DNA of 64,000 nucleotides from an uncultured Bacteroidales bacterium (lineage in GTDB: Bacteria > Bacteroidota > Bacteroidia > Bacteroidales > UBA10428), in assembly GCA_963717995.1 (NCBI GenBank), contig CAVQXX010000015.1:1841857-1905856 (forward strand). The letters are read 5' to 3'. The position numbers and the translations under genes were made by a program. The notes beneath the pieces were generated by a model. That model saw only the letters and a list, made by a program, of their open reading frames with translations, was not told the origin of the DNA and searched no databases. Positions 5,432 through 39,228 of this stretch are shown here, piece after piece (position 1 is the first letter of the stretch; every line of letters begins with the position of its first letter).

Positions 5432-5435
5432 AGGC

Positions 5436-5463
5436 CGGTATTCGGTGATCGGTGATCGGTAAA
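5436..5463. repeat. CGGTRAT heptamer array (4 units) starting 5 nt after the E1 stop
   Basis: Units are cggtatt, cggtgat, cggtgat, cggtaaa. TGA/TAA recur with a 7-nt period. Confidence 0.8.
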
Positions 5464-5473
5464 TTAGAAATAA

Positions 5474-5558
5474 TTGTAGAGCCAGGGCAATGCCCTGGCT
5501 GTAAGGTCACCAGCACAGGAGAAAAATACTGTAGAGACAAGGCAATGCCTTGTCTGTA
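5474..5558. repeat. Two copies of a roughly 30-nt hairpin element (TGTAGAG-stem-AAT-stem-GTA). A third copy lies at 41819-41839.
   Basis: Copy 1 has stem AGCCAGGGC/GCCCTGGCT (5480-5500). Copy 2 has stem AGACAAGGC/GCCTTGTCT (5535-5555). Both have loop AAT, and the stem differences between copies are compensatory. Confidence 0.8.
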
Positions 5559-5587
5559 CGATTACCAACACGGATCAAAATATAGGG

Positions 5588-5657
5588 TAGAGTTAGTTTA
5601 AGTAGTAAGTTTAGTAGTTAGTAGTTAGTAGTTAGGAGTTAGGAGTTTGGAGTTGGG
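5588..5657. repeat. Degenerating AGTTAGT/AGTTAGG heptamer array (about 10 units)
   Basis: ...agtagttagtagttagtagttaggagttaggagtttggagttgggg. TAG recurs every 7 nt. Confidence 0.8.
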
Positions 5658-5679
5658 GCAGCCAGAGGGTGGCTGCCCC
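5655..5679 (+). terminator. GC-rich hairpin (9-bp stem GGGGCAGCC/GGCTGCCCC). Possible terminator or insulator between E1 and the PHP-like gene.
   Basis: The stem is perfect with a 7-nt loop and is followed by a weak T-rich tail (ttattaacaatt). It lies 29 nt before ATG 5708. Confidence 0.4.
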
Positions 5680-5707
5680 TTATTAACAATTAAAGGAAAA
5701 GCAAAAA

Positions 5708-6943
5708 ATGAAGTCGAATTTTCTTTCCACGTATCCCGATAGTCAGGCATTGCTAAAGATGACTCCTGCCAGTGAAATCCCACAGGTAAACGGTCATGTT
5801 CATACTCCTTATTCATTCAGCGCCTTTGAAAATATCGGACAGATATTTGAAATGGCACGCAAAGAAAAGATTGTGGCTGTGGGAATTAACGATTTTTTTG
5901 TATCCGACGGTTATGAACCCTTCTGCACAGAAGCTCTGAAAAACAATGTTTTTCCGCTGTTCAACATCGAGTTCATCAGTCTGCTAAAATCGGAACAACA
6001 GCAAGGGATCCGGATCAACGATCCAAATAATCCGGGTCGCTGTTATTTTAGCGGAAAGGGATTAAACTATCCTTTTTCGGTTGATAAATCCCTGGCTGAA
6101 AAACTCGGCCATATAGTGAGCCAGAGTCAGGAACAGGTAAAAGCCATGATCGAGAAATGCAATCAGTGGTTTACAGCAATAAAAGCAGACATACGGCTTA
6201 ATTACCCTGATATCCGCCTGAAATTTGCCAAGGAACTCGTCAGGGAACGTCATATTGCAAAGGCCATCCGTGTAGCGGTCTTCGAAACATTTTCAGGTGA
6301 GCATGAGCGTAAAACTTTGCTGACCCTGATATTTGATGGAAAAGAACCAAAATCAAACCTTACCGATATTCCTGCCCTTGACAATGAAATCAGGGGCAAT
6401 CTGCTGAAATCGGGGGGTAAGGCCTTTGTTGAAGAGGATGAAAATGCTTTCATGAGTTTAGATGAAGTAATAGAAATTATCCTGGCTGCCGGTGGAATTC
6501 CATGTTACCCGGTCTTACTTGATGATAAAAACGGCACCTATACCGAATATGAGCGCGATCCGGAAATTTTGTATAAAGAACTGGGCAAAAGGAATATAAA
6601 ATGCCTGGAACTTATTCCGGGAAGAAATGATGCCTCTCATCTTCAGCGTTTTGTGGAGTTTTTTCAGAAAAAGGATTTTGTTATACTCCTGGGAACTGAG
6701 CATAACGCTCCTGAAATGATTCCCCTAACCTGTGACACACGCGACAAAAAGCCTTTAAATAGCTATATCAGCCAAATTTCCTATGAAGGAGCCTGCGTGG
6801 TCGCCGCTCATCAATACCTGAAATCCAAAGGATTACACGGTTTTATCAATGAAAAGGGATTGCCTGATACTGCACGGAAATCTGAACTGGCTAAACTCGG
6901 CAGTGCTGTTATTCATTATACAAACGTAACCTATAAAGCATAA
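5708..6943 (+). CDS. PHP-domain-like metal-dependent phosphoesterase family protein
   Basis: N-terminal 'NGHVHTPYSFSAF' resembles PHP motif I (HxH..S) and a late 'GTEHN' resembles the C-terminal His motif. The stop is 2 nt before the next gene. Family assignment is by motif only. Confidence 0.5.
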   Translation: MKSNFLSTYPDSQALLKMTPASEIPQVNGHVHTPYSFSAFENIGQIFEMARKEKIVAVGINDFFVSDGYEPFCTEALKNNVFPLFNIEFISLLKSEQQQGIRINDPNNPGRCYFSGKGLNYPFSVDKSLAEKLGHIVSQSQEQVKAMIEKCNQWFTAIKADIRLNYPDIRLKFAKELVRERHIAKAIRVAVFETFSGEHERKTLLTLIFDGKEPKSNLTDIPALDNEIRGNLLKSGGKAFVEEDENAFMSLDEVIEIILAAGGIPCYPVLLDDKNGTYTEYERDPEILYKELGKRNIKCLELIPGRNDASHLQRFVEFFQKKDFVILLGTEHNAPEMIPLTCDTRDKKPLNSYISQISYEGACVVAAHQYLKSKGLHGFINEKGLPDTARKSELAKLGSAVIHYTNVTYKA

Positions 6944-6945
6944 AT

Positions 6946-8916
6946 ATGACTGACAAGTATCTTTCTGATCTCATCAGTATATCTCAGCATTTTGGTGCAG
7001 ATAAGGAATATGTCATTGCCGGAGGCGGTAATACCTCTTACAAAAATGACACCGACATCTGGGTAAAGGCAAGTGGTACATCCCTGCAGAATATCAGTAT
7101 AGCTGGTTTTGCCAAATTGCACCGGAGCCTTCTTCAGGAAATGTATACGAAGAAATACAGTCAGGAGGCCGATAAACGGGAGGCTGAGGTTAAGGCCGAC
7201 CTTTACAGGGCCTGCCATGAAGGAATTACCGTGCGGCCTTCGGTAGAAACCTCAATGCATGAGATCATCAATTATCCCTTTGTGGTTCATACCCACCCCA
7301 CCCTTGTGAATGCAATTACATGCTCAAACAAGGCGGAAGAAATAATCCTTTCGTTATTCGGCGATGAGGCCTTGTACATTCCCTGGGAAGATCCGGGTTA
7401 TATCCTGTTCGCCAAAATAAGGGATCTTCTGTGGGAATGGCGTAAAACACATTCGGCCGATCCGCAGATAATTTTCCTGCAAAATCATGGTGTTTTTGTG
7501 GCTTCCGGCACCACAGAGGATATTTTTGAAAAATACAGGAATATTGACTCAATCATACGCAAGCATCTTAAACAGATGCCTGATACAACCGCAATAGAAG
7601 TACCTGCGCAGATTGTGAGGATATTACCGGCCCTGCGAATGATCTTTTCCAGGGAAAACGCAAAAATAGCCGGCATCAGAAATAATCCGCTGGCACAGCT
7701 TTTCCTCAAAGACGCTGCCAGTTTTGCAAAGGTTGCCCTTCCGTTCATTCCCGACCAGATAGTGTATTGCAAGGCAAGAGCAATCTATCTTGAACAGGAT
7801 CAGCCCGAGGCAATCATTGCAGAATGCAACGCCAGGGTCACTGCATATGAAAAACAATACGGATATATGCCCAAAATGGTGGGCCTGAAGGGTTACGGAA
7901 TAATAGCCATTGAAGATACCTGGAAATCAGTGGATACAATGCAGGAGGTTTTTGAGGACTGGATGAAGATCAGCTTTCTGTCGGAAAATTTCGGCGGTCC
8001 TCATTTCATGAGTGAAAGGGATATCTCCTTTATCGATAACTGGGAGGTGGAAAACTACAGAAGACAGATCTCCAAATCAGCATCATCAAAAGGCAGGGCA
8101 GAAAATAAGATCGTTGTGGTAACCGGAGGTGCCCAGGGATTTGGTGCCGGAATCGCTGCACATATGATGAATGAAGGGGCCAACATGGTAATCGCCGATC
8201 TGAATGAGACTATGGGTAAAGAACTGGCTAATACCTTTAACCAGGGAAAAAACAAGGGGAAAGCAATCTTTGTAAAGACTGATGTATCCAGTGCCTCCTC
8301 CGTTGAAAACCTTATCACGGAAACAGTACGGAATTTTGGCGGACTGGATGTGTTCATCAGTAATGCGGGCATACTTCGTGCAGGCGGACTGGATGAAATG
8401 AGTCCTGAATCGTTTGAACTAATGACAAAGGTTAACTACAATGCCTATTTTCTATGTGCAAAATATGCTTCAGCCGTATTAAAACTGCAATCCACACAGA
8501 AGCCGGGATTTTTCACCGACATTATACAGATTAACTCAAAATCAGGATTAAAGGGCAGCAATAAAAACTTTGCCTATGCAGGAGGCAAATTCGGAGGAAT
8601 TGGCCTTACACAATCCTTTGCCCTTGAACTGATGCCTTTCGGTATTAAGGTGAATTCGATATGTCCGGGTAATTTCTTTGAAGGTCCATTGTGGAGTGAT
8701 CCGGAGACGGGATTGTTTGTCCAATATCTGAGAACAGGCAAGGTACCGGGAGCAAAAACGATCGAGGATGTAAAAGCCCGGTATGAAAAGCAGGTTCCGG
8801 CAGGCCGCGGCTGCAGGGTAGAGGATGTGATGAAAGCCATTTATTATGTCATTGAACAGGAATATGAAACAGGTCAGGCTGTTCCGGTAACAGGTGGACA
8901 GGAAATGCTTAGTTAG
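6946..8916 (+). CDS. Bifunctional class II aldolase/adducin-domain plus short-chain dehydrogenase fusion (rhamnulose-1-phosphate aldolase/lactaldehyde dehydrogenase RhaEW-like architecture)
   Basis: 656 aa. The N-terminal ~400 aa are class-II-aldolase-like ('FVVHTHP', 'QNHGVFV'). The C-terminal SDR has 'VVTGGAQGFGAGIA' (TGxxxGxG), 'NAG' and the catalytic 'YAGGK' (YxxxK). Confidence 0.8.
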   Translation: MTDKYLSDLISISQHFGADKEYVIAGGGNTSYKNDTDIWVKASGTSLQNISIAGFAKLHRSLLQEMYTKKYSQEADKREAEVKADLYRACHEGITVRPSVETSMHEIINYPFVVHTHPTLVNAITCSNKAEEIILSLFGDEALYIPWEDPGYILFAKIRDLLWEWRKTHSADPQIIFLQNHGVFVASGTTEDIFEKYRNIDSIIRKHLKQMPDTTAIEVPAQIVRILPALRMIFSRENAKIAGIRNNPLAQLFLKDAASFAKVALPFIPDQIVYCKARAIYLEQDQPEAIIAECNARVTAYEKQYGYMPKMVGLKGYGIIAIEDTWKSVDTMQEVFEDWMKISFLSENFGGPHFMSERDISFIDNWEVENYRRQISKSASSKGRAENKIVVVTGGAQGFGAGIAAHMMNEGANMVIADLNETMGKELANTFNQGKNKGKAIFVKTDVSSASSVENLITETVRNFGGLDVFISNAGILRAGGLDEMSPESFELMTKVNYNAYFLCAKYASAVLKLQSTQKPGFFTDIIQINSKSGLKGSNKNFAYAGGKFGGIGLTQSFALELMPFGIKVNSICPGNFFEGPLWSDPETGLFVQYLRTGKVPGAKTIEDVKARYEKQVPAGRGCRVEDVMKAIYYVIEQEYETGQAVPVTGGQEMLS

Positions 8917-28598: not shown

Positions 28599-29132
28599 CT
28601 AGTCCCCAGTCCCTGGTCTCTGCTTAAACCATCCCGCATACATAATATAATCATCCGCGATGCGGTTGATCATTTCAGCCGTCTGTTCCGGATCCACATC
28701 TTTCACCCGTTTCGCCGGAACCCCGGCATAAATACTGCCGGGTTCCACAAGGGTGCCGGTTAATACAACCGATCCTGCCGCTATTATTGAATTTTCTCCG
28801 ATTATGGCGTTGTCAAGTATCACTGAACCCATGCCAATGAGGACATTATTTCCAATTTTAGCGCCATGAATTACCACATTATGACCAATGGAAACATTAT
28901 CACCAATTTCTATTACTGAACGCTGGTAAAGACAATGCAATACAGTACCATCCTGTATGTTGACCTTATTACCTATGCGGATAGAATTCACATCACCCCT
29001 TACCACCACACCAAACCAGAAGCTGCATTGATCACCGGCTATTACATCACCGATGATTACAGCCGTTTCAGCCAGGTAACAATTTTCACCCAGTTGCGGT
29101 GTAAAGCCCCGTACAGATTTAATTAATGCCAT
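28599..29132 (-). CDS. Gamma-carbonic-anhydrase-like / hexapeptide-repeat (LbH) family protein
   Basis: Left-handed beta-helix hexapeptide repeats ('IGDNVSIGHNVVIHGAKIGNNVLIGMGSVILDNAIIGENSIIAAGSVV'), with His residues typical of gamma-CA/PaaY/CaiE-like proteins. Confidence 0.88.
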   Translation of the reverse strand: MALIKSVRGFTPQLGENCYLAETAVIIGDVIAGDQCSFWFGVVVRGDVNSIRIGNKVNIQDGTVLHCLYQRSVIEIGDNVSIGHNVVIHGAKIGNNVLIGMGSVILDNAIIGENSIIAAGSVVLTGTLVEPGSIYAGVPAKRVKDVDPEQTAEMINRIADDYIMYAGWFKQRPGTGD

Positions 29133-29362
29133 TTAATTAGATTTATCTTTAACCAAAATTAATATACTGGCAGCAACTATTTGCATTAACTTTAAATATT
29201 CACCTTTCTAAATACATTATAAATAAGAATGCACCTAAAAGGTTTACAGTGGTTATTAATCGACCTGATTTTTGTCATAAAACTTTTATTTACAGGTTTT
29301 AATCATGGAAAGATTATGACTATTTTGTTACTATTGCAAGTGTTTAAATCGGTACCACAAAT

Positions 29363-31216
29363 ATGAAGAAAAGAGTAAAAATTATTGAACGGGATGAAGT
29401 TGTGGTGAAATTTGCCGGTGATTCCGGTGATGGCATGCAACTAACAGGAACACAATTCTCCGATACTTCAGCATTTATTGGAAATGATCTTGCCACATTT
29501 CCGGATTACCCGGCAGAAATAAGGGCTCCCCAGGGAACTGTAGCAGGTGTTTCAGGTTTTCAGGTTCATATCGGTGCAAAGGAAGTTACAACCCCGGGTG
29601 ACCTGGCTGATGTGCTGGTTGCAATGAATCCGGCTGCTCTGAAAGCCAATATGAAATGGATAAAACCGGGTGCTACAATCATTGTTGATATTGACAATTT
29701 TGATTCAAGACATTATAAACTGGCAGATTATATCGAAGATCCGCTCGAAGATGGATCCCTCGAAGGTTTTAATGTGGTAAAAGCACCCATCACCGAAATG
29801 ACCCGTGATGTGGTTAAACAGTTTGGTCTCGATGCAAAGACTGCTGATAAGACTAAAAATCAGTTTGTTGCCGGACTATTATTCTGGCTTTTTAACCGTG
29901 ATGTCAAAATTGGAGAAGATTTTCTTCATGAACGGTTTAAAAATAAACCGGAACTGATCCAGCCCAATCTTGAGGTGTTGCGCGCCGGCTATAACTATGC
30001 CGAAACGGTTGAAGCCATTGAGTCAACATACCAGGTAAATCCGGCTGAAAAAGGTTCAGGCCTTTACAGGAATATCACCGGTAATGTCGCTGTAGCATGG
30101 GGACTTCTTGCTGCATCTGAAAAAGCCGGCAGGAAGCTCTTCCTGGGCTCCTACCCCATTACTCCTGCAACCGAAATTTTGCAGGAACTTACAAAGATGA
30201 AAAAACTGGGTGCAGTTGTCTTCCAGGCAGAAGATGAAATTGCCGGCGTGTGCTCGGCTATCGGCGCTTCGTTTGCCGGATGCCTTGGAGCAACTTCCAC
30301 CTCGGGTCCCGGACTTTCACTCAAAAGTGAAGGCATCGGGCTGGCTGTTATCACAGAATTACCGCTGGTAGTTGTGGATGTCCAGCGTGGCGGACCTTCA
30401 ACGGGATTACCGACAAAAACAGAACAATCCGACCTTTTTCAGGCCCTTTACGGACGCCATGGTGAAAGCCATGTGGTGGTGCTTGCCTCCTCAACCCCGG
30501 CAAATTGTTTTGACTATGCCTTTGAAGCATCCCGCATTGCCCTGGAACACATGACACCGGTGATCCTGCTGTCAGATGGTTACCTGGCAAACGGCTCTGA
30601 ATTGTGGAAAATACCTAAAATGGCGGATCTTCCTGAAATTCATGCTCCCCTTGTTGAAGATAATGACTGCGAATACAAGCCCTATAAACGCGATCCGGAA
30701 ACGCTGGTACGTTCATGGGCGATCCCGGGACAGGAAGGACTCAGACACCATATAGGCGGACTTGAGAAATCCGATATCACCGGGGAAATTTCTTATGATC
30801 CGATTAACCATGAGAAAATGACAATCTACCGAACGGAAAAGGTTGCCCGTGTGGCTAACGATATTCCCCGACAAGCAGTGTATGGCCCTGCAAAGGGTGA
30901 CCTGTTGATCGTAGGCTGGGGCGGAACCTATGGTGCCCTGTATACTGCCGTAACTGAAATGCAGGAAGAAGGAAAGAAAATAAGTCTGGCGCAGTTCAAT
31001 TACATCAACCCCCTGCCGGTGAATACAGAAGAAATTTTTTCACAATACAAAAAGATACTTGTCTGTGAACTAAACCTTGGACAATTTTCCGGGTACCTCC
31101 GAAGCAAGCTGCCCCAGTATAATTATCTTCAATTTAACAAATTACAGGGACTTCCCTTCATGATTTCAGAGTTGAAGCATAAGTTTAATGAGATTTTGAA
31201 CCAGATAGAAAACTAA
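29363..31216 (+). CDS. korA: 2-oxoglutarate/2-oxoacid:ferredoxin oxidoreductase, alpha subunit (fused gamma-alpha type)
   Basis: 617 aa. 'KFAGDSGDGMQLTG...FPDYPAEIRAP' and 'SYPITPATEIL'. It is followed after 5 nt by the TPP-binding beta subunit. Confidence 0.88.
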   Translation: MKKRVKIIERDEVVVKFAGDSGDGMQLTGTQFSDTSAFIGNDLATFPDYPAEIRAPQGTVAGVSGFQVHIGAKEVTTPGDLADVLVAMNPAALKANMKWIKPGATIIVDIDNFDSRHYKLADYIEDPLEDGSLEGFNVVKAPITEMTRDVVKQFGLDAKTADKTKNQFVAGLLFWLFNRDVKIGEDFLHERFKNKPELIQPNLEVLRAGYNYAETVEAIESTYQVNPAEKGSGLYRNITGNVAVAWGLLAASEKAGRKLFLGSYPITPATEILQELTKMKKLGAVVFQAEDEIAGVCSAIGASFAGCLGATSTSGPGLSLKSEGIGLAVITELPLVVVDVQRGGPSTGLPTKTEQSDLFQALYGRHGESHVVVLASSTPANCFDYAFEASRIALEHMTPVILLSDGYLANGSELWKIPKMADLPEIHAPLVEDNDCEYKPYKRDPETLVRSWAIPGQEGLRHHIGGLEKSDITGEISYDPINHEKMTIYRTEKVARVANDIPRQAVYGPAKGDLLIVGWGGTYGALYTAVTEMQEEGKKISLAQFNYINPLPVNTEEIFSQYKKILVCELNLGQFSGYLRSKLPQYNYLQFNKLQGLPFMISELKHKFNEILNQIEN

Positions 31217-31221
31217 GCATT

Positions 31222-32238
31222 ATGGAAAACACGTGCATCCCAACGATACAGGATTTTAAAATGAGCTCGGCAGCACGTTGGTGCCCGGGGTGTGGTGGAC
31301 ATGCCGTTCTTGCGGCTGTTCAGCGTGCTCTCCCTGAAACCGGCGTGACAAAGGAAAAAGTCGTTTTTGTTTCAGGAATTGGCTGCTCATCGCGGTTCCC
31401 TTATTATATTCATACCTATGGATTCCATGGCCTGCATGGTCGCGGTGCAGCCATTGCCTCGGGTATCAAACTTGCCAATCCCGGACTGAGCGTATGGCTC
31501 GTCACCGGTGACGGCGATTCGTTAGCCATAGGAGGAAATCACTTTATCCACCTGCTCAGAAGGAATTTAGATATTAACGTCCTTCTATTTAACAATAAGA
31601 TCTACGGGCTGACCAAAGGACAATACTCACCCACAACACCAAAAGGAAGCATTACAAAATCCTCACCCGATGGTACGATCGAAAATCCTTTTCTTCCCGG
31701 TGAACTGGCCATGGGTGCACAGGGCAACTTCTTTGCCAGGGTTGTGGACAATGATCTTGAACTGATGAAGGATGTATTTATTCAGGCTGCCAGGCATAAA
31801 GGCACATCCCTTGTTGAAGTACTGCAGAATTGCGTGATCTTCAATGATGACATCCATGCTGAAATTACAGGCAAGGAATTACGTGAAGAGCACCAGCTTC
31901 GCCTTGAGCATGGTAAACCCATGATCTTTGGAAAAAACAAGGATTTAGGACTTATCCAGGAAGGCGCCCGCTTTAAAGTTGTTAAAATCGGGGAAAACGG
32001 CATCCGCAAAGAAGATATTCTCATCCATGATGCTGTAAATCCCGACGACACAAGGCATTATATGCTCGCCCGTATGACGCTGCCCGAGTTTCCGATTGCT
32101 ACCGGTGTGATCAAGGCATGCAAAAGCACGGTTTACGAGGAAATGCTATATGACCAGATAAAGACCATACGGTCAAAATCAAAGATCCTCAATATGGACG
32201 ATCTGCTGGCAAGTGGCAATACATTTAAACTGGAATAA
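31222..32238 (+). CDS. korB: 2-oxoglutarate/2-oxoacid:ferredoxin oxidoreductase, beta subunit
   Basis: 'WCPGCGGHAVL', 'GIGCSSRFP', and 'GDGDSLAIGGNHFIH...NNKIYGLTKGQ' (the TPP motif). Confidence 0.9.
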   Translation: MENTCIPTIQDFKMSSAARWCPGCGGHAVLAAVQRALPETGVTKEKVVFVSGIGCSSRFPYYIHTYGFHGLHGRGAAIASGIKLANPGLSVWLVTGDGDSLAIGGNHFIHLLRRNLDINVLLFNNKIYGLTKGQYSPTTPKGSITKSSPDGTIENPFLPGELAMGAQGNFFARVVDNDLELMKDVFIQAARHKGTSLVEVLQNCVIFNDDIHAEITGKELREEHQLRLEHGKPMIFGKNKDLGLIQEGARFKVVKIGENGIRKEDILIHDAVNPDDTRHYMLARMTLPEFPIATGVIKACKSTVYEEMLYDQIKTIRSKSKILNMDDLLASGNTFKLE

Positions 32239-32297
32239 GCTGGTGCATAAGGAAAGGTTTTTTTGACTAAATTTCATCCACACAATTACCCTGAACC

Positions 32298-35297
32298 ATG
32301 TCAAAGCGAGTGGAAGAAAGTCATATCGAAACCTACTATTTTTCAGATACTTCCTTTAACCTCTTGATGCAGAATCGCATCAGGAAGGTTCTGGTGATTT
32401 GCAGCAGTTATGATTTCTACATGCTCGAAGAGGATGGTCGTATTGATGAGCAGATATTTAATGAATATGTATCCCTGAATCTGCGGTATCCCCCCGTCTT
32501 TATTCACGCTGACTCTGCCAAAAAAGCGCTGAAAATACTTGAAGAAGACAGGATAGACCTTGTCATTGAGATGTTAAGCATCGGGGATGTCGACACGTTT
32601 GAGCTTGCCAGGCACCTGAAGGAAAAACATCCCAGGATACCCATTGTTGTATTGACCCATTTTTCAAGAGAAGTGTCTCTGAAACTGGAAAATGAGGACC
32701 TCAGCGCCATCGATTATGTATTTTGCTGGCTTGGCAACAGTGACTTGTTGCTGGCCATCATTAAACTGATTGAAGATCGTATGAACGCGGAATTCGATAT
32801 TCAGGAAGTAGGCGTCCAATCGATATTGCTCATTGAGGATTCGGTGCGCTTTATATCTTCCTACCTTCCTGTTCTGTATAAGGTGGTACTTGAACAATCC
32901 ATGGAATTTATGAAGGAGGCATTGAATGAGCATCAGAAAATGCTTCGCCGCAGGGGAAGGCCTAAGATCCTGCTGGCCCAGAATTATGAGGATGCACTGA
33001 ACATCTACCGGAAATACAAGAGTAACATCATGGGGATCATTTCGGATGTGAGTTATAAAATGACATCCAACCGGAAAGATCCTAAATTCCGTGGCGGGAT
33101 TGATCTCTGCAGGCTTGTAAAATCAGAAGACAAGAATATTCCCTTTCTGCTGCAGTCATCTGACCTTTCCAATCAAACCTATGCAAATGAACTGAATGCA
33201 GGCTTTCTTCATAAACACTCAAAAAATCTTTCATATGATCTGAAAGATTATATCCTCAGGAATTTCGGATTTGGTGAATTCATATTCAGGGATCCGGAAA
33301 CCATGGTGGAATATTGTGTGGCAGCAAATCTCCGCGATCTGCAGCAGATGATCATGACAGTTCCTGATAATATCCTGATATATCACACCCAGCGCGACGA
33401 TATTTCCAAGTGGCTCAATGCCCGTGCTTTGTTTCCAATTGCCCAGATCTTTAAACCGGCTAAACTCGAGGACTTTAGAAGTCTGCTGGATGTTAGAAAA
33501 TACATTTATAAAGCCATTTCGAGTTTCCGTACAAGCAAGGCCAAGGGGGTAATTGCCGAATTCGACAGGCATCTGTATGACGAGTATGTCGGGTTTTCCC
33601 GTATCGGTGAAGGCTCTATTGGTGGAAAGGCCAGGGGCCTGGCTTTTTTCGACAGCTTTCTGAAAAAGGACCTGTTCTTTGGAAAATATCCGAATGTTTC
33701 GATTTCAATCCCCCATACTGTTGTTCTCAGTACAGAGGTATTTGATGAGTTTATGGATGAAAATGATCTGTACACACTGGCTGTTTCGGGTAGCACTGAT
33801 GAAGAGATATTGAACAGCTTTGTAAATGCAAGGCTGCCCGAACATATTTACCAGGACCTGGGCTCAATCATCCTACAGGCCAGGAACCCGATTGCCATCA
33901 GATCATCTAGCAAGCTTGAAGATTCTTATTATCAGCCATTTGCCGGGATCTATAATACTTACATGATCCCCATCGTTCCCGTGAAGGCCCTGGCAATCCG
34001 CATGCTTGAGAATGCTATAAAATGTGTCTATGCATCTGTTTTCTTCAAATCAAGCAAGGCATATGCAATGGCCACATCCAACCTGATCGATGAGGAAAAG
34101 ATGGGCATCATTATCCAGGAAGTCTGCGGCCGGCAGTATGGAGACCGCTTTTATCCGTCCATATCGGGAGTTGCCCGATCCATTAATTTTTACCCGATCA
34201 GTCCGGAAAAAACCAATGACGGAATTGCCACAATCGCTTTCGGACTGGGTAAACTGATCGCTGAAGGCGGTACCGGGCTTCGTTTTTCACCAAAATATCC
34301 ACGAAAGATAATTCAGTTGTCAAATCCCGATCTGGCCATCAAATCTACCCAGAAGTATTTTTATGCCCTTGACATGAATCCGGAAAGTTTTGTCCCGTCT
34401 CCTGATGATACAATTAATCTCAAGCGGCTTAACATACAGGATGCCGTTCAGGATGGTACATTAAAGATGGTGGCTTCCGTGTACGATCTCGAAAACCAGA
34501 CTATAATTGATGATTATGATACCCCTGGCAAAAAGATCGTCACATTCTCTCATATTCTGAACCATGACATCTTTCCCCTGGCAGAAATCCTGGATAATCT
34601 GCTCCAGTTAGGTCAAAAAGCCATGAATAACCCCGTAGAAATAGAATTTGCCGTTGACCTGGATATGACTTCCAAAAATCCTGTTTCATTTAATCTTCTC
34701 CAGATCAGGCCTATTGTTATCAATGAACAAAGCCTTAACTTCAGGATTGATAAGATTAATCAGGATGAAGTAATCATCTATTCTGAGAAGGCGCTTGGCA
34801 ATGGGGTTTATAACCAGATCGCCGATGTGGTATACGTGAAACCAGAGGCTTTCAGGCCGGCTGAAAGCGTGAAAATCGCCCGCGAACTGGAGAAGATAAA
34901 TGATCATTTTGTTCAGTCACAACATGCTTACATGCTTGTTGGACCTGGAAGATGGGGTTCAAGTGATCCATGGCTTGGAATCCCGATCAAATGGGCTCAT
35001 ATTTCGCAGGCAAGGATTATTGTTGAATCGGGACTGGAACATTTCCGCGTTGATCCAAGCCAGGGAACTCATTTCTTTCACAATCTTACAAGTTTTGGAG
35101 TAGGCTACCTAACCGTGAATCCGTTTTTGAATGATGGCATTTACTGCGTTGATTTTCTTAATGCACAGCCGGCTATAACAGAAACCGGATTTCTGAGGCA
35201 TGTAAAATTTTCAAAATCCCTCAAGATTGAAATTGACGGAAAAACAAACCGGGCCGTGGTGTACAAGCCTGTTAATTCATCGGTCACAGCGGTTTAG
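32298..35297 (+). CDS. Multidomain signalling protein with two N-terminal receiver-like domains and a PEP/pyruvate-binding (PPDK_N, ATP-grasp) domain, followed by a conserved C-terminal 'GPGRWGS' domain
   Basis: REC-like 1 is 'KVLVICSSYD...DLVIEMLS...IVVLT', with the acceptor position apparently Glu. REC-like 2 is 'ILLIEDS...GIISDVSY...FLLQSS...LHK'. The PPDK_N-type motif is 'GEGSIGGKARGLAF' with 'IRSSSKLEDS'. I saw no phospho-His swivel or PEP-utilizer TIM barrel. Confidence 0.65.
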   Translation: MSKRVEESHIETYYFSDTSFNLLMQNRIRKVLVICSSYDFYMLEEDGRIDEQIFNEYVSLNLRYPPVFIHADSAKKALKILEEDRIDLVIEMLSIGDVDTFELARHLKEKHPRIPIVVLTHFSREVSLKLENEDLSAIDYVFCWLGNSDLLLAIIKLIEDRMNAEFDIQEVGVQSILLIEDSVRFISSYLPVLYKVVLEQSMEFMKEALNEHQKMLRRRGRPKILLAQNYEDALNIYRKYKSNIMGIISDVSYKMTSNRKDPKFRGGIDLCRLVKSEDKNIPFLLQSSDLSNQTYANELNAGFLHKHSKNLSYDLKDYILRNFGFGEFIFRDPETMVEYCVAANLRDLQQMIMTVPDNILIYHTQRDDISKWLNARALFPIAQIFKPAKLEDFRSLLDVRKYIYKAISSFRTSKAKGVIAEFDRHLYDEYVGFSRIGEGSIGGKARGLAFFDSFLKKDLFFGKYPNVSISIPHTVVLSTEVFDEFMDENDLYTLAVSGSTDEEILNSFVNARLPEHIYQDLGSIILQARNPIAIRSSSKLEDSYYQPFAGIYNTYMIPIVPVKALAIRMLENAIKCVYASVFFKSSKAYAMATSNLIDEEKMGIIIQEVCGRQYGDRFYPSISGVARSINFYPISPEKTNDGIATIAFGLGKLIAEGGTGLRFSPKYPRKIIQLSNPDLAIKSTQKYFYALDMNPESFVPSPDDTINLKRLNIQDAVQDGTLKMVASVYDLENQTIIDDYDTPGKKIVTFSHILNHDIFPLAEILDNLLQLGQKAMNNPVEIEFAVDLDMTSKNPVSFNLLQIRPIVINEQSLNFRIDKINQDEVIIYSEKALGNGVYNQIADVVYVKPEAFRPAESVKIARELEKINDHFVQSQHAYMLVGPGRWGSSDPWLGIPIKWAHISQARIIVESGLEHFRVDPSQGTHFFHNLTSFGVGYLTVNPFLNDGIYCVDFLNAQPAITETGFLRHVKFSKSLKIEIDGKTNRAVVYKPVNSSVTAV

Positions 35298-35304
35298 TTA
35301 AACC

Positions 35305-36234
35305 CTAGGAATGGAAGACCAAAAGCGGAATACCACTGTGATAGAATAGCTTTTTGGGCAGATTCGGCTTAAACAGTTTCTCAATGATGCTCCGGCGATG
35401 AGAGGTAAGTGAAACAATGTTGATGTTTTTTTCTCGTACAAGGTTATCCAGGTTTTCCAGCAGGTTTTTCTGATTGATGAAGCTGTAGGTCACCTGTGTC
35501 TTTCCATATGCCTTACTGAAATAAGCCATTAGCCCGTCCATTTTTATCTGGTCCCATTCTTTCGGATCCTCCCCGATATGCACACAGTGTATGTCAAGAT
35601 CAAGCTGTTCGGTAATATTCATCAGTTTTTTGAGAGAGAGAAAATCAGATTCATCAAAATCAGTCACATACAATACATTCTTAACATTTTTCTCCCCTAT
35701 AAAGATGTATTTCTCAGGCACGGCTATGATTGGAAATGTTATCCGGTTGATGACAGCCGCAGTGACACTGCCAATAATGGAGCCGACACCGGTTCCTTTA
35801 CCATGGGTACCCATAACCACCAGGTCGGGTTCATATTCCTGGCTGAATTGAATGATCTCATCTTCAGGAACTCCGGGTGCAATGTCATAACTAAATAGGG
35901 TGGCCTTCATGCCGCATTCGGCAACATAATCCTTCATTTGCTGGATAAAGCTTTCGATAGTGGCCCTTTCACTTTCCTCAAGATTGGTAGTTACCTCTTC
36001 ACGCAGTTGTGTCTGGGTTTGAACCGCACCTGCCAGTTCAATCAGGTCAAAAGCCGGGGAATAATACGTGTGAAAAAATTTGATTTCGGCACCCACCTTG
36101 CAGGCTATTTTAATCGCATAGCGGCAGGCGAACTTTGAACATTCAGAATAATCCACAGGAACAAAGATCTTTCGAATAACACCCGAGAAGGCCGTCTTAT
36201 CTGAAATATGGCTGGCTGCTTTCATATCCCACAA
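35305..36234 (-). CDS. Tandem universal stress protein (2x UspA domain)
   Basis: 'DLVVMGTHGKGTGVGSIIGSVTAAVI' is the Usp ATP-binding G-2x-G-9x-G(S/T) region, and a second Usp-like half follows. Convergent with the preceding gene, with a 7-nt gap. Confidence 0.8.
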   Translation of the reverse strand: MWDMKAASHISDKTAFSGVIRKIFVPVDYSECSKFACRYAIKIACKVGAEIKFFHTYYSPAFDLIELAGAVQTQTQLREEVTTNLEESERATIESFIQQMKDYVAECGMKATLFSYDIAPGVPEDEIIQFSQEYEPDLVVMGTHGKGTGVGSIIGSVTAAVINRITFPIIAVPEKYIFIGEKNVKNVLYVTDFDESDFLSLKKLMNITEQLDLDIHCVHIGEDPKEWDQIKMDGLMAYFSKAYGKTQVTYSFINQKNLLENLDNLVREKNINIVSLTSHRRSIIEKLFKPNLPKKLFYHSGIPLLVFHS

Positions 36235-36390
36235 TATTTAAGGAATTAAAACCTTGTACAAGTTAGTTAAAAAATGGGTCGATTGCAATATCTGCTTGAG
36301 AAGATATGAGAGTTGAGTAGGGAGTCCCTCAGCATTTATCAATTTTGCCCCAAAATAATTAACTGAAATGGAAAATGCGAACAAAGTGAG

Positions 36391-36569
36391 CATTCATCTG
36401 CGTGCCGAAGGCATCCCTTCGGGAAAATCTGCGGAATCTGCGAGAGAAGTTTTTGGAATTTATGACTTTACAGGGAATATGTAAAAGTTTTACCGCCGAG
36501 GTCACGAAGGAATACGCAAAGTTCACAAAGTTTAATTTTGAGGCGCTTTGCTTTTTTGAGGTCGCAGAG
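36391..36569. repeat. Degenerate word-repeat region sharing 10-12-nt strings with 10457-10636
   Basis: cattcatctg occurs at 36391 and 10457. gaaaatctgcg / atctgcgaga occurs at 36423-36445 and 10623-10636. gaggtcgcagag occurs at 36558 and 10557. There is also a hairpin CCGAAGG-catc-CCTTCGG at about 36404-36421. Confidence 0.7.
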
Positions 36570-36658
36570 TTTAGCGACCCTGCCTTTGTGCCTTTGTTAC
36601 AGTCATTTAAAATCTAGTTATTTAAGAGTAAGGAGTAGGGAGATTCCACTCTGAAGAG

Positions 36659-36688
36659 ACTGCAAGACTGCAAGACCGCAAGACTGCC
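36659..36688. repeat. ACTGCAAG octamer array (about 3.7 units)
   Basis: Units are actgcaag, actgcaag, accgcaag, actgcc. The unit is identical to that at 9027-9050. Confidence 0.85.
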
Positions 36689-36817
36689 TTGAGATTTCAG
36701 TTGCAGACTTTTGACAGATCGTTATCAAGACACAATATAAATAAATGGAGGCAACACCCCCGAAATAATAAAATATATATTTTCGGGAATTAAATCAGGA
36801 TCACTCTTACAGGTTAC

Positions 36818-38308
36818 ATGAAAAAGGATAAAACTGCTGTCATAATTGGTGCAGGTATAGCCGGAATTACAACTGCCCTTTACCTGGCCCGGGAAGGTTT
36901 TAATGTAACTGTTTATGAAAAGAATTCCTTCCCCGGAGGCCGCTGTGGCCAGATTCTCCGTGATGGTCACAGGTTTGATCTTGGTGCCACTATTTTCCTG
37001 ATGCCCGGGATATACAGAAAGGTATTCAAATCACTTGGACTGACAATTGATGAATGTTTTGATTCGACCCCTTTATCTACATTATATACAATGCATTTTG
37101 GGGACGGCACAACTCTTTGCTTTTCAACTGATAAATCTGTATTGAAGGAAGAACTGGAGAAATTAGAAAAGGGGAGTTTTGAAAAATCCCAGCAGTTTAT
37201 CAAAACCGGATACCACCTTTTTCAATTGTCGATGGATCATCTTCTCAGCAGAAATTTTTACAGGATGAGGGATTTTATAACCCTTGACAATGCTTTGCTT
37301 TTACTGCGATTGAAAACGTACATGAAGCATATGACGTTTGTAAAGCGGTATTTTAAAAATAAAAACCTTCAGAAGGCTTTCTCGTTTCAGAATATTTATG
37401 TAGGACAGGACCCTTATAAGGCACCTGCCCTTTTCGCCATGCTGCCGGCCGCCGAGTTGACCGAAGGTTCCCTCTTTCCTGCCGGAGGTATGTTCAGTGT
37501 TACTGAAAAAATGATGTCACTGGCCACCGGGGCCGGAGCCCGTTTTGTATACAGCATGCCTGTTGCCAGAATTCAAACCGACGGGGATCATGTGAACGGT
37601 GTTGTCTTACAGAACGGTCAAACCATACTGGCTGATCTGGTCATTGCCAATGCTGATCTTCCTTACGTTTACCGGGAACTGCTCCCGGATAAAAGAAAAT
37701 CAAATCGCATCGGGAAACTGCGCTATTCCTGCTCGGCTATCGTAATTCACTGGGGACTGGATAAGGTTTATCCTCAGTTTAGTCATCATAATGTATTTTT
37801 ATCTGATGATTACGAGAATAACCTCCATAAAATTTTTCATGATCAATCGATTTCCGATCATCCCAGTTTTTATGTGCATGCACCGGTCAGATCCGATCCA
37901 GCAGCCGCACCTACAGGACACGATACAATATCAATCATTATTCCCTCGGGCCATTACAGTGAAACAGATGATCAAAACTGGAATGAGCTGAAAAACAAAG
38001 CCCGGGTATCCGTCATATCAAGGCTAAAAAAACTTGGCATGACTGATATTGAAGAACATATCAAATTTGAAATCTGTTATCTGCCCCAAACCTGGAAAAA
38101 TATGTTCAATCTCTCAAAGGGCGCTACATTTGGAAGTCTCGGTCACAATATATTTCAGATGGGATATTTCAGACCCCATAACCGGCATAACCGGTATAAA
38201 AACCTTTATTTCGCCGGTGGCAGTACACATCCGGGCAGCGGCATACCTCTCGTGTTACTTTCAGCACAGCTCACTTCTGAACGCATAATAAAAGAATATT
38301 CATCATGA
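36818..38308 (+). CDS. crtI: Phytoene-desaturase-family FAD oxidoreductase (CrtI/CrtN type)
   Basis: N-terminal dinucleotide fold 'AVIIGAGIAGITTALYLAREGFNVTVYEKNSFPGGRCG' and C-terminal 'LYFAGGSTHPGSGIPLV'. Whether the substrate is C40 or C30 cannot be decided from sequence alone. Confidence 0.8.
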   Translation: MKKDKTAVIIGAGIAGITTALYLAREGFNVTVYEKNSFPGGRCGQILRDGHRFDLGATIFLMPGIYRKVFKSLGLTIDECFDSTPLSTLYTMHFGDGTTLCFSTDKSVLKEELEKLEKGSFEKSQQFIKTGYHLFQLSMDHLLSRNFYRMRDFITLDNALLLLRLKTYMKHMTFVKRYFKNKNLQKAFSFQNIYVGQDPYKAPALFAMLPAAELTEGSLFPAGGMFSVTEKMMSLATGAGARFVYSMPVARIQTDGDHVNGVVLQNGQTILADLVIANADLPYVYRELLPDKRKSNRIGKLRYSCSAIVIHWGLDKVYPQFSHHNVFLSDDYENNLHKIFHDQSISDHPSFYVHAPVRSDPAAAPTGHDTISIIIPSGHYSETDDQNWNELKNKARVSVISRLKKLGMTDIEEHIKFEICYLPQTWKNMFNLSKGATFGSLGHNIFQMGYFRPHNRHNRYKNLYFAGGSTHPGSGIPLVLLSAQLTSERIIKEYSS

Positions 38309-39228
38309 ATGAGCAATACTCTTCCATTTTCAATACAATTGATTTCGAGAAAATAATCGATCATCCCAATATTCTGATTGCTGCTGCATTTTGGGATGAT
38401 AAGCGATATAAAGCTGCCCGTATATGCTACAAATATATGCGGGCCATTGATGACCTGATCGACTGCCACAAATCGGCCCATAAAACCATTGCGGAAAGTG
38501 AGAAGGAAAAATTCATGGATAATGTCAATGCCTGGATTGCCATGGCCCATGAATCAAAAAAACATGGAAAGGAAGGAGATGAGTTGCTGGATACGATCCG
38601 GACATTTCATATACCCGTATGGCCATTGGAAGCCTTTGCAAAATCAATGATATATGATATTGACCATGTTGGATTCCGAACGATAGAAGATTTTATTGAA
38701 TATTCCCAGGGCGCATCGGTTGCACCCGCGTCAATTTTTGTGCATTTGAGCGGATTGACCCAAAATGGCCAGGGATATAAGGAACCTCTGTTTGATGTAA
38801 GATCAGCAGCCACACCTTGTGCAATGTTCAGTTACCTGGTTCATATTATCCGTGATTTTCAAAAAGACCAGCTAAACAACCTGAACTATTTTTCAGATGA
38901 AAGTCTGAGCCGGAACGGCCTTACAACAGAAGACCTGTATGCCATGGCCCGGGGTGCGGAAATTAAGGATGGCTTCAGGAAAATGATAAAGGAATACTGC
39001 ATCCTGGCTGAAAAATACAGGCAGCAAACATACCAGGTGATCCAAAATATATGGCCCTTGCTGGAACCAAGGTATAGGCTCAGCCTGCTCATTATCTTCA
39101 ATCTGTACCTGATGGTATTTGAACGAATTGATGCGGATCATGGAAATTTCACCACAGCTGAACTAAATCCCACACCGGAAGAAATCCGAATCCGGGTTAA
39201 GGAAACAATCTATCATTTCAGGGAATAA
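38305..39228 (+). CDS. crtB: Phytoene/squalene synthase family protein (CrtB/CrtM type)
   Basis: Asp-rich motif 1 'YMRAIDDLID' and motif-2 region 'VHIIRDFQKD'. A 4-nt ATGA overlap with crtI indicates translational coupling. Confidence 0.75.
   Translation: MNEQYSSIFNTIDFEKIIDHPNILIAAAFWDDKRYKAARICYKYMRAIDDLIDCHKSAHKTIAESEKEKFMDNVNAWIAMAHESKKHGKEGDELLDTIRTFHIPVWPLEAFAKSMIYDIDHVGFRTIEDFIEYSQGASVAPASIFVHLSGLTQNGQGYKEPLFDVRSAATPCAMFSYLVHIIRDFQKDQLNNLNYFSDESLSRNGLTTEDLYAMARGAEIKDGFRKMIKEYCILAEKYRQQTYQVIQNIWPLLEPRYRLSLLIIFNLYLMVFERIDADHGNFTTAELNPTPEEIRIRVKETIYHFRE

Follow-up and report, generated by a model that had tools for sequence, protein, structure and literature searches.

A mostly Bacteroidota family of response-regulator proteins with a PPDK_N-type ATP-grasp core, often encoded beside glutamate dehydrogenase

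We analysed a window of 64,000 nucleotides (nt) from an uncultured Bacteroidales bacterium (contig CAVQXX010000015.1 of assembly GCA_963717995.1) and concentrated on one open reading frame (ORF) whose product combines two receiver domains, a DUF5752-like domain, an ATP-grasp domain of the PPDK_N type, and a C-terminal domain specific to its family. We are highly confident of this architecture, and also that the protein is neither a phosphoenolpyruvate (PEP) synthase nor a pyruvate phosphate dikinase (PPDK), because the swivel phospho-His domain and the PEP/pyruvate barrel of these enzymes are absent. The protein belongs to a large family in which the gene encoding glutamate dehydrogenase (GDH) is the commonest neighbour. 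We read the product as an orphan two-component response regulator that would have an enzyme as its output and would act on the 2-oxoglutarate/glutamate node, and we consider this reading about equally likely to be right or wrong.

Architecture of the protein and its closest known relatives

The ORF and the predicted domains of its product, with positions in the window and in the protein (in amino acids, aa), are the following.

32298..35297, + strand: signalling-protein ORF, 999 aa, ATG start
32379..32792, + strand: first receiver (REC1), aa ~28-165, predicted degenerate pseudo-receiver with a Response_reg match and a (beta-alpha)5 fold in the AlphaFold2 model
32814..33263, + strand: second receiver (REC2), aa ~173-322, canonical, with the codon of D250 at 33045-33047 and a long helix-1 insertion
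33264..33533, + strand: DUF5752-like domain, aa ~323-412, followed by a low-confidence linker (aa 413-439)
33615..34739, + strand: PPDK_N-type ATP-grasp domain, aa 440-814 (Pfam PF01326, E 1.5e-33)
34740..35294, + strand: family-specific C-terminal domain, aa 815-999, with the motifs GPGRWGSSD and SxG[ST]HFF

The names given to homologues in databases are diverse: 'phosphoenolpyruvate synthase', 'PEP/pyruvate-binding domain-containing protein', 'CheY-like', and 'response regulator'. The first of these, used by NCBI, and the presence of a PPDK_N domain are the arguments for a genuine PEP synthase or PPDK, and we see practically no chance that the protein is one. In the Pfam search it matched nothing beyond Response_reg and PPDK_N, and neither PEP-utilizers nor PEP-utilizers_C was found, even at E<=1. 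The NCBIfam equivalog models for PEP synthase, PPDK, and PigC gave 25-44 bits against cut-offs of 740-1300; e.g., TIGR01418 scored 25 bits against 740 and NF004881 41 against 883, and the other PEP-synthase equivalogs fell equally far below their cut-offs. The swivel phospho-His domain (PF00391, GGxTSHAAIVAR) was detected neither by Pfam nor by PDB sequence search, hhalign, or Foldseek. There was no match to the PEP/pyruvate TIM barrel (PF02896) either, and just 185 residues remain after the ATP-grasp domain, which are unrelated to the swivel domain or to the barrel. The initial annotation of this ORF had recognised neither domain, and our searches agree that this is not a complete PpsA or PPDK.

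The ATP-grasp domain itself is well preserved. Its match spans profile positions 3-317 of 328, and K444, R535, E541, D542, E783, and Q802 are invariant in 68 sequences at 32-50% identity; R804 is Arg in 66 of these and Lys in two, and E781 is present in at least 90%. These residues lie in the motifs GGKARG (K444), RSSSxLEDS..QPFAG (R535 and E541/D542), VEIEFA (E781/E783), and LQIRP (Q802/R804), which align with RSS..ED..FAG and DIE..Q.R of the solved rifampin phosphotransferase and PEP synthases. We take them to be the ATP- and Mg-binding residues, as known for PPDK. As far as residue conservation tells, the nucleotide- and Mg-binding motifs of the domain are intact.

Three groups of enzymes are informative comparisons for this core. 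PpsA and PPDK share the PPDK_N domain, including its conserved motifs with Lys, Arg, Glu, Gln, and Arg, and the PPDK structure 1kbl matches the full model in Foldseek (E 1.7e-5); in contrast to them, the window protein lacks PF00391 and PF02896 and has receivers, DUF5752, and a novel C-terminal domain. Rifampin phosphotransferase (PDB 5fbs, 5hv1) is the best sequence match among solved structures (E 1e-12), and PigC, of the PigC/RedH enzymes, is the best among the NCBIfam models (5.9e-12). These are PPDK_N enzymes without a PEP barrel, and they set a precedent for the re-use of PPDK_N on non-pyruvate acceptors. The similarity to rifampin phosphotransferase and PigC is nevertheless limited to ~150 residues of the ATP-grasp domain (aa ~465-610), and both keep the canonical C-terminal swivel-His domain, undetected in the window protein, and have no receivers. 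Response regulators with an enzymatic output are already known; what is new here is the re-use of a PPDK_N core in combination with a new C-terminal domain.

This C-terminal domain of ~185 aa is a new alpha/beta domain. Its stand-alone AlphaFold2 model is of the alpha/beta type and confident (predicted local distance difference test 85.8, predicted template modelling score 0.86). No Pfam match was found in the 57 members scanned at E<=10, the profile of the domain matched no PDB sequence, and Foldseek gave no fold match for the model in the PDB (best E 0.065, template modelling score <0.35). R885, E910, S921, G923, H925, and F926 are invariant in the family. H925 (codon 35070-35072) is the family's sole invariant His, and it is also kept in the upstream paralogues and the receiver-less relatives described below. 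Two known folds were considered and rejected. By eye, the order of elements (beta-'LVG', loop, beta-'IIVE', loop-'GTH', helix, beta) resembles that of the swivel domain ('ILV..TSP..GIVT..GGxTSH..'), but all sequence and fold tests for a cryptic swivel phospho-His domain were negative: hhalign gave a probability of at most 0.4% against Escherichia coli PpsA and of 0.4% against a purpose-built alignment of 10 swivel sequences (PpsA, PtsI, PtsP, PPDK, and rifampin-phosphotransferase-like), and Foldseek of the model matched no PPDK, PpsA, or EI. A Polbeta-type nucleotidyltransferase fold was discarded as well, as Foldseek returned no such match; in the one relative that carries NTP_transf_2, the nucleotidyltransferase is an extra domain placed after an intact C-terminal domain.

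The two receivers have different characteristics. The set formed by the acidic pair, the Asp, the Ser/Thr, and the Lys is complete in REC2 and incomplete in REC1. REC1 is the one recognised by Pfam in the window protein (Response_reg, aa 70-146, with 39.2 bits where the cut-off is 30.2), and it has S36/S37 in place of the acidic pair, E91 in place of the acceptor Asp, and C143 in place of the conserved Lys. E91 (motif DLVIEMLS, codon 32568-32570) pairs with the acceptor Asp of the NtrC1 receiver in the HMMER alignment. Glu at this position is specific to the window's clade (62-95% identity), where it is conserved in at least 90% of the sequences. Across 68 diverse homologues the acceptor column holds Thr (31 sequences), Ala, Ser, Ile, or Val, and since this is the state of the family, REC1 is best seen as a pseudo-receiver and not as a phosphomimic by design. 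In REC2, the quintet is present in nearly all of the same 68 homologues (E180 in 65, D181 in 60, D250 in 61, S287 in 65, K306 in 66), and it is invariant in a second alignment that includes paralogues. The REC2 segment of the window protein has no Response_reg match at E<=1; the corresponding segment matches in 28 of 56 homologues, and the AlphaFold2 model has the (beta-alpha)5 receiver fold. In Foldseek, both receivers align to PleD, which is also the top match of the full model (E ~1e-7), and the receiver-fold matches include CheB, LuxO, and single receivers.

PleD is indeed the closest analogue of the N-terminal half, with two consecutive (beta-alpha)5 receivers, only one of which has the phospho-acceptor set, before an enzymatic output. 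The window protein differs from it in having the pseudo-receiver first, an ATP-grasp output instead of GGDEF, and the helix-1 insertion in REC2. Another comparison is PorX, an orphan response regulator of Bacteroidota that is among the structural and sequence matches through its receiver. It likewise has an enzyme (a PglZ phosphodiesterase) as output and is encoded away from its kinase; the fold and the chemistry of this output are unrelated to those of the window protein. Between REC2 and the ATP-grasp domain, DUF5752 (PF19027) matches 44 of 56 homologous segments (best E 6.7e-7). The middle segment of the window protein has itself no PF19027 match at E<=1 and was assigned through its alignment to the matching homologues; in the PDB it has a weak match to 4cso (E 0.029).

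The initial annotation had read much of this correctly from the letters. The position of the ORF, the Glu in place of the acceptor Asp in the first receiver, the nucleotide-binding signature of PPDK_N in the centre, and a distinct, conserved-looking C-terminal module were all recovered by our analysis, the last now with invariant motifs and without a Pfam or PDB counterpart. The motifs it had quoted for a second, more canonical receiver are those of E180/D181, D250, S287, and K306. Its view that both N-terminal domains are receivers stands for REC1 by Pfam score and for REC2 through its homologues, fold, and Foldseek matches, the Pfam score in the window protein being the part that failed. Its list of two receivers, PPDK_N, and a C-terminal module lacked a fifth, the DUF5752-like domain.

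Family and gene neighbourhood

When 1.84 billion cluster representatives were searched with aa 320-999, at least 920 clusters (50% identity) matched at E<=1e-30, and 3680 matches were obtained at E<=1e-3; at 90% identity, the clusters scored numbered over 8000. Most matches are ~1000 aa long and have the same ~320-aa N-terminal extension. The fusion that the initial annotation had singled out is therefore no oddity, and its wider distribution is that of a large, mostly Bacteroidota family, gut Bacteroides, Prevotella, and Alistipes included. At least 598 matches come from GTDB species representatives, among them Bacteroidales and Flavobacteriia (Lutibacter, Gillisia, Polaribacter), and three groups of the human gut, those of B. 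ovatus, B. finegoldii/salyersiae, and B. cellulosilyticus/intestinalis, contribute clusters of 2000-5000 sequences. Distant members occur in metagenome-assembled genomes (MAGs) of Kiritimatiellia and Terriglobales. The best homologue of the window protein (95% identical) is metagenomic, its named relatives are Bacteroidales MAGs, and full-length collinear homologues range from 32 to 95% identity over 97-100% of the length. Literature searches on PPDK_N response regulators, on DUF5752/OrfY, and on gdhA with a regulator returned no paper describing the family.

In the window, the ORF is separated by 59 nt from the upstream gene, which ends at 32238, and by 7 nt from a convergent one; these are the two gaps given by the initial annotation. 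Its immediate neighbours are the following.

29363..31216, + strand: KorA-type 2-oxoacid:acceptor oxidoreductase alpha subunit (Pfam POR, POR_N, PFOR_II; TIGR03710)
31222..32238, + strand: KorB-type beta subunit, on the same strand as the ORF and 59 nt before it
35305..36234, - strand: tandem Usp protein (Pfam Usp), convergent with the ORF

The KorA-type protein scores 647 bits with TIGR03710 against a cut-off of 483, and we infer that the KorAB-type enzyme is specific for 2-oxoglutarate. The N-terminal half of the Usp protein matches at E 2e-24, and its C-terminal half weakly, at E 0.0023, under the Pfam cut-off. A scan of positions 29000-36800 for promoters and terminators gave nothing above shuffled expectation on operon structure, with a sigma-70 consensus that is unsuited to Bacteroidota.

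The neighbourhoods of homologues were compared in two samples. The first consists of 85 loci, with family proteins that share 46-79% identity with the window protein; 80 loci belong to GTDB species representatives, and five are contigs of close homologues, two of which are redundant. The second consists of 83 independent loci seeded from distant members, mostly metagenomic, at a median of 41% identity to the window protein. In the first sample, a gene (gdh) for a ~445-aa GDH of the ELFV type is the commonest neighbour: 33 loci have it within 8 kb, and 25 have it right next to the family gene. It lies downstream on the same strand in 16 loci, upstream and divergent in nine, and upstream on the same strand in six, and in Lutibacter and Polaribacter it stands on both sides of the family gene. 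In the second sample, gdh is within 600 nt in 43 of the 83 loci; of the 40 loci whose flanks reach 2 kb or more on each side, 23 have it adjacent. Most often it stands directly upstream of the family gene and on the same strand (31 loci), and nine loci have it on both sides. No other neighbour family exceeds 13 of 85 loci in the first sample or 7 of 83 in the second. The association extends to members at 32-35% identity, where we found the order GDH, family gene, and a fusion of PPDK_N, the C-terminal domain, and a nucleotidyltransferase, as well as the order GDH, PPDK_N paralogue, GDH, and family gene.

Upstream of the family gene and on its strand, korB was found at a distance of up to 8 kb in 13 of the 85 loci, nearly all of which have 57% identity or more; the two genes are direct neighbours in about half of the 13, and in the rest they are separated by an upstream paralogue of the family gene. 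A relative at 61% identity (L009) has korB, the family gene, and gdh contiguous, and another (L004) has the same order with the paralogue inserted; these relatives, at 61-63% identity, retain gdh immediately downstream. Because they keep this order, the window's clade appears to derive from a korAB - regulator - gdh arrangement from which gdh was lost. Usp occurs in two of the 85 loci, and CrtI or SQS, whose genes lie further downstream in the window, in one. We rejected Usp as a partner on this basis. The linkage to korAB and usp that the initial annotation had proposed thus holds for korAB among the closer relatives and fails for usp. Likewise, its hint at central carbon, redox, or energy status survives as a link to central metabolism, specifically the 2-oxoglutarate/glutamate node and not redox or energy in general.

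Certain loci have features worth noting beside this association. In the B. ovatus group, ~4 kb separate the family gene from gdh, and a gene for an S9 peptidase lies in this interval. In one locus of this group (L086:6114-7996), an AAA_21/SMC_N ATPase and an HNH/NinG nuclease are encoded as a pair between the peptidase and the family gene, and this looks like a mobile or defence insertion. Genes for NfnAB-like or GltD-like iron-sulfur flavoproteins, with the domains DHODB_Fe-S_bind and NAD_binding_1, or Fer4_20 and Pyr_redox_2, are present in 3-4 loci with gdh and the family gene (L105:2020-2799, L138:13306-14754, and similar); their products could supply NADPH to GDH. We dropped a link to the B. 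thetaiotaomicron gdhA locus made through the tag BT_1971, which is a catalase. A 1996 paper on B. thetaiotaomicron gdhA reportedly found that a ~3-kb downstream segment was required, and in our loci the commonest layout has the ~3-kb family gene directly downstream of gdh; we treat this connection as a lead and not as a finding. The GDH of B. fragilis is also said to be reversibly inactivated in vivo.

We looked in the same loci for a kinase that could act on the receivers. The window has none, HisKA-type kinases occur in four of the 168 loci, and a PAS-HisKA_3 kinase in seven loci of one distant subclade. Some of these (L109, L112, L114, and L117; e.g., L112:634-11120) have the order gdh, family gene, PAS-PAS-HisKA_3 kinase, NarL/LuxR regulator, gdh, and family gene. 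This soluble PAS-HisKA_3 kinase is, among the loci examined, the only candidate cognate kinase linked to the family. A conserved linked kinase was rejected, as there is none in the window and none is conserved outside that subclade.

Proposed function and alternative explanations

We propose that an unlinked histidine kinase would phosphorylate Asp250 of REC2 and thereby switch on ATP-dependent phosphotransfer in a catalytic core made of the DUF5752-like domain, the ATP-grasp domain, and the His-bearing C-terminal domain. The phosphoryl group would probably pass from ATP to His925 and from there to an acceptor, by analogy with the dikinases of the PPDK type. We infer the phosphotransfer chemistry from the conservation of residues; that His925 is the phospho-carrier is an analogy, possible and rather doubtful. 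GDH converts 2-oxoglutarate to glutamate, and in the physiology of Bacteroides, KorAB-type enzymes form 2-oxoglutarate by reductive carboxylation of succinyl-CoA. Because both recurrent partners, GDH across the family and the KorAB-type enzyme in the window's clade, handle 2-oxoglutarate, the output of the regulator would act on the ammonia-assimilation node. The neighbourhood makes a functional link to GDH or 2-oxoglutarate probable. The regulator would most likely control ammonia assimilation at the post-translational level, and it might do so by modifying GDH covalently. Going by the neighbouring genes, the target could be GDH itself, another protein, or a metabolite, and we think it unlikely that GDH is the direct substrate.

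If one pushes the argument to its end, the family could be the missing machinery for post-translational control of GDH in Bacteroidota, i.e., a protein dikinase or kinase gated by a response regulator that uses a new phospho-His domain (His925) to switch GDH on and off. We consider this unlikely. If true, the family would be the Bacteroidota counterpart of the system formed by GlnE and glutamine synthetase. The analogy with the proteobacterial GlnE/GlnD is functional only: if the GDH hypothesis holds, both would be cases of signal-controlled reversible modification of an ammonia-assimilation enzyme, and one relative in the family carries a fused NTP_transf_2 domain. There is no homology between the two, the window protein lacks a nucleotidyltransferase, and GDH would take the place of glutamine synthetase or PII as the target. 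The matter is of some importance. Bacteroidota dominate the human and animal gut and assimilate ammonia mainly via GDH, whose regulation is poorly understood, and a widespread signalling enzyme linked to gdh is a concrete candidate for its regulator. The repertoire of response regulators would also gain a new class of output, with an ATP-grasp core and a new His-bearing domain. Finally, correcting the label 'phosphoenolpyruvate synthase' matters for metabolic reconstructions of gut and environmental Bacteroidota.

Several observations weigh against the proposed function. About half of the loci with good flanks have no adjacent GDH gene, and gdh is absent from the 64-kb window, so that the GDH link of the window's gene comes from its homologues. 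The models that match the KorAB-type enzyme do not fix its specificity for 2-oxoglutarate. We know of no PPDK_N enzyme that modifies proteins. The confidence of AlphaFold2 falls below 50 around H925 in the full-length model. And the C-terminal domain has no detectable kinship to known phospho-His swivel domains, and therefore the carrier role of H925 is only an analogy.

One alternative is that the ATP-grasp core, with or without His925 as carrier, phosphorylates a small molecule, and that the receivers gate this activity; the substrate could be a metabolite of the glutamate/2-oxoglutarate pathway or an effector of GDH. One argument for this is that, among solved structures, the ATP-grasp domain is closest to rifampin phosphotransferase (E 1e-12) and the PEP synthases. 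Another is that, as far as is known, the characterised PPDK_N enzymes all phosphorylate small molecules or glucans, e.g., rifampin phosphotransferase, PigC/RedH, and glucan-water dikinase act on non-protein acceptors. DUF5752 and the C-terminal domain might provide a pocket for a ligand, and a neighbourhood of GDH and KorAB fits a metabolite of that node equally well. Yet neither a swivel-His domain nor a known substrate-binding domain is detectable, there is no plausible phosphorylated intermediate known in the chemistry of GDH or KorAB, and the regulatory inputs, the tandem paralogues, and the fusion with a nucleotidyltransferase look more like a signalling or modification cascade. We regard a small-molecule kinase or dikinase as a credible and still unlikely explanation.

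Catalysis could also be dispensed with altogether: the ATP-grasp domain would bind ATP/AMP or PEP-like ligands, receiver phosphorylation would alter the oligomeric state as in PleD, and the protein would regulate GDH or KorAB by direct binding. A tandem of receiver and pseudo-receiver does resemble the dimerisation switch of PleD, no phospho-acceptor domain is recognisable, and binding partners are typically encoded in the kind of tight, often operonic pair that the family gene forms with gdh. We find such a non-catalytic sensor improbable, since the ATP-grasp catalytic residue classes and the flexible RSSSxxEDS loop are conserved over 32-50% identity, which argues for turnover, and the invariant His/Arg/Glu/Ser set of the C-terminal domain looks like an active site. 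Lastly, the neighbourhood might be uninformative and the regulator might control something unrelated, such as a stress response, the envelope, or the nearby carotenoid/squalene genes. Besides korAB, the neighbours in the window are Usp, a CrtI-like oxidase, and SQS_PSY, many loci lack GDH, and gut Bacteroides loci such as L039 and L048 show other neighbours. We give this little credence, because only GDH recurs across classes, orientations, and 32-70% identity, while Usp, CrtI, and SQS recur in just 1-2 of the 85 loci.

Family variants and other genes of the window

The motifs GPGRWG and THFF are retained in all forms of the family, which otherwise vary in their modules. There are receiver-less forms of ~600-780 aa and tandem double modules of ~1600 aa; three of the latter (P0138, P0162, and P0214, 1523-1654 aa) consist of two complete modules of PPDK_N and C-terminal domain, without receivers. 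In 13 loci, a longer paralogue (about 1150-1270 aa, with extra N-terminal residues) lies directly upstream of the family gene, e.g., in L007, L008, L010, L011, L013, L014, L023, L024, L032, and L075 (at ~4400-7960 in each). This paralogue often overlaps the family gene by a few bases, keeps D250, H925, and the ATP-grasp residues, and is not present in the window. Other variants have N-terminal repeats of a sensor-like domain lacking assignment. These repeats of ~125 aa (P0194 aa 1-570, L104:10094-10600) have no Pfam match and share the motif W.YPE...ARI.YDG.EY...G.I.V.Y...PFL.EE..LL; they may be a ligand-sensing module that replaces or precedes the receivers. One fusion adds an NTP_transf_2 nucleotidyltransferase after the C-terminal domain. 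It is encoded directly downstream of GDH and a family member (L104:10094-13270, 1058 aa) and has an N-terminal region without assignment, PPDK_N, the C-terminal domain with GPGRWG and THFF, and NTP_transf_2/Polbeta, in which the canonical GS...DxD motif is present. The fusion suggests that this system may include a nucleotidylylation step.

Elsewhere the window has neither gdh nor a kinase gene, and the family gene has no second copy in it; BamA, OmpH, MurI, and UppS are among the proteins that it encodes. Beyond the Usp gene, at 36818-39228, a gene for a CrtI-like FAD amine oxidase/phytoene desaturase and an SQS_PSY gene (squalene/phytoene synthase) overlap by 4 nt. They form a two-gene isoprenoid module, unusual for Bacteroidales, that is kept in the closest relative (L003).

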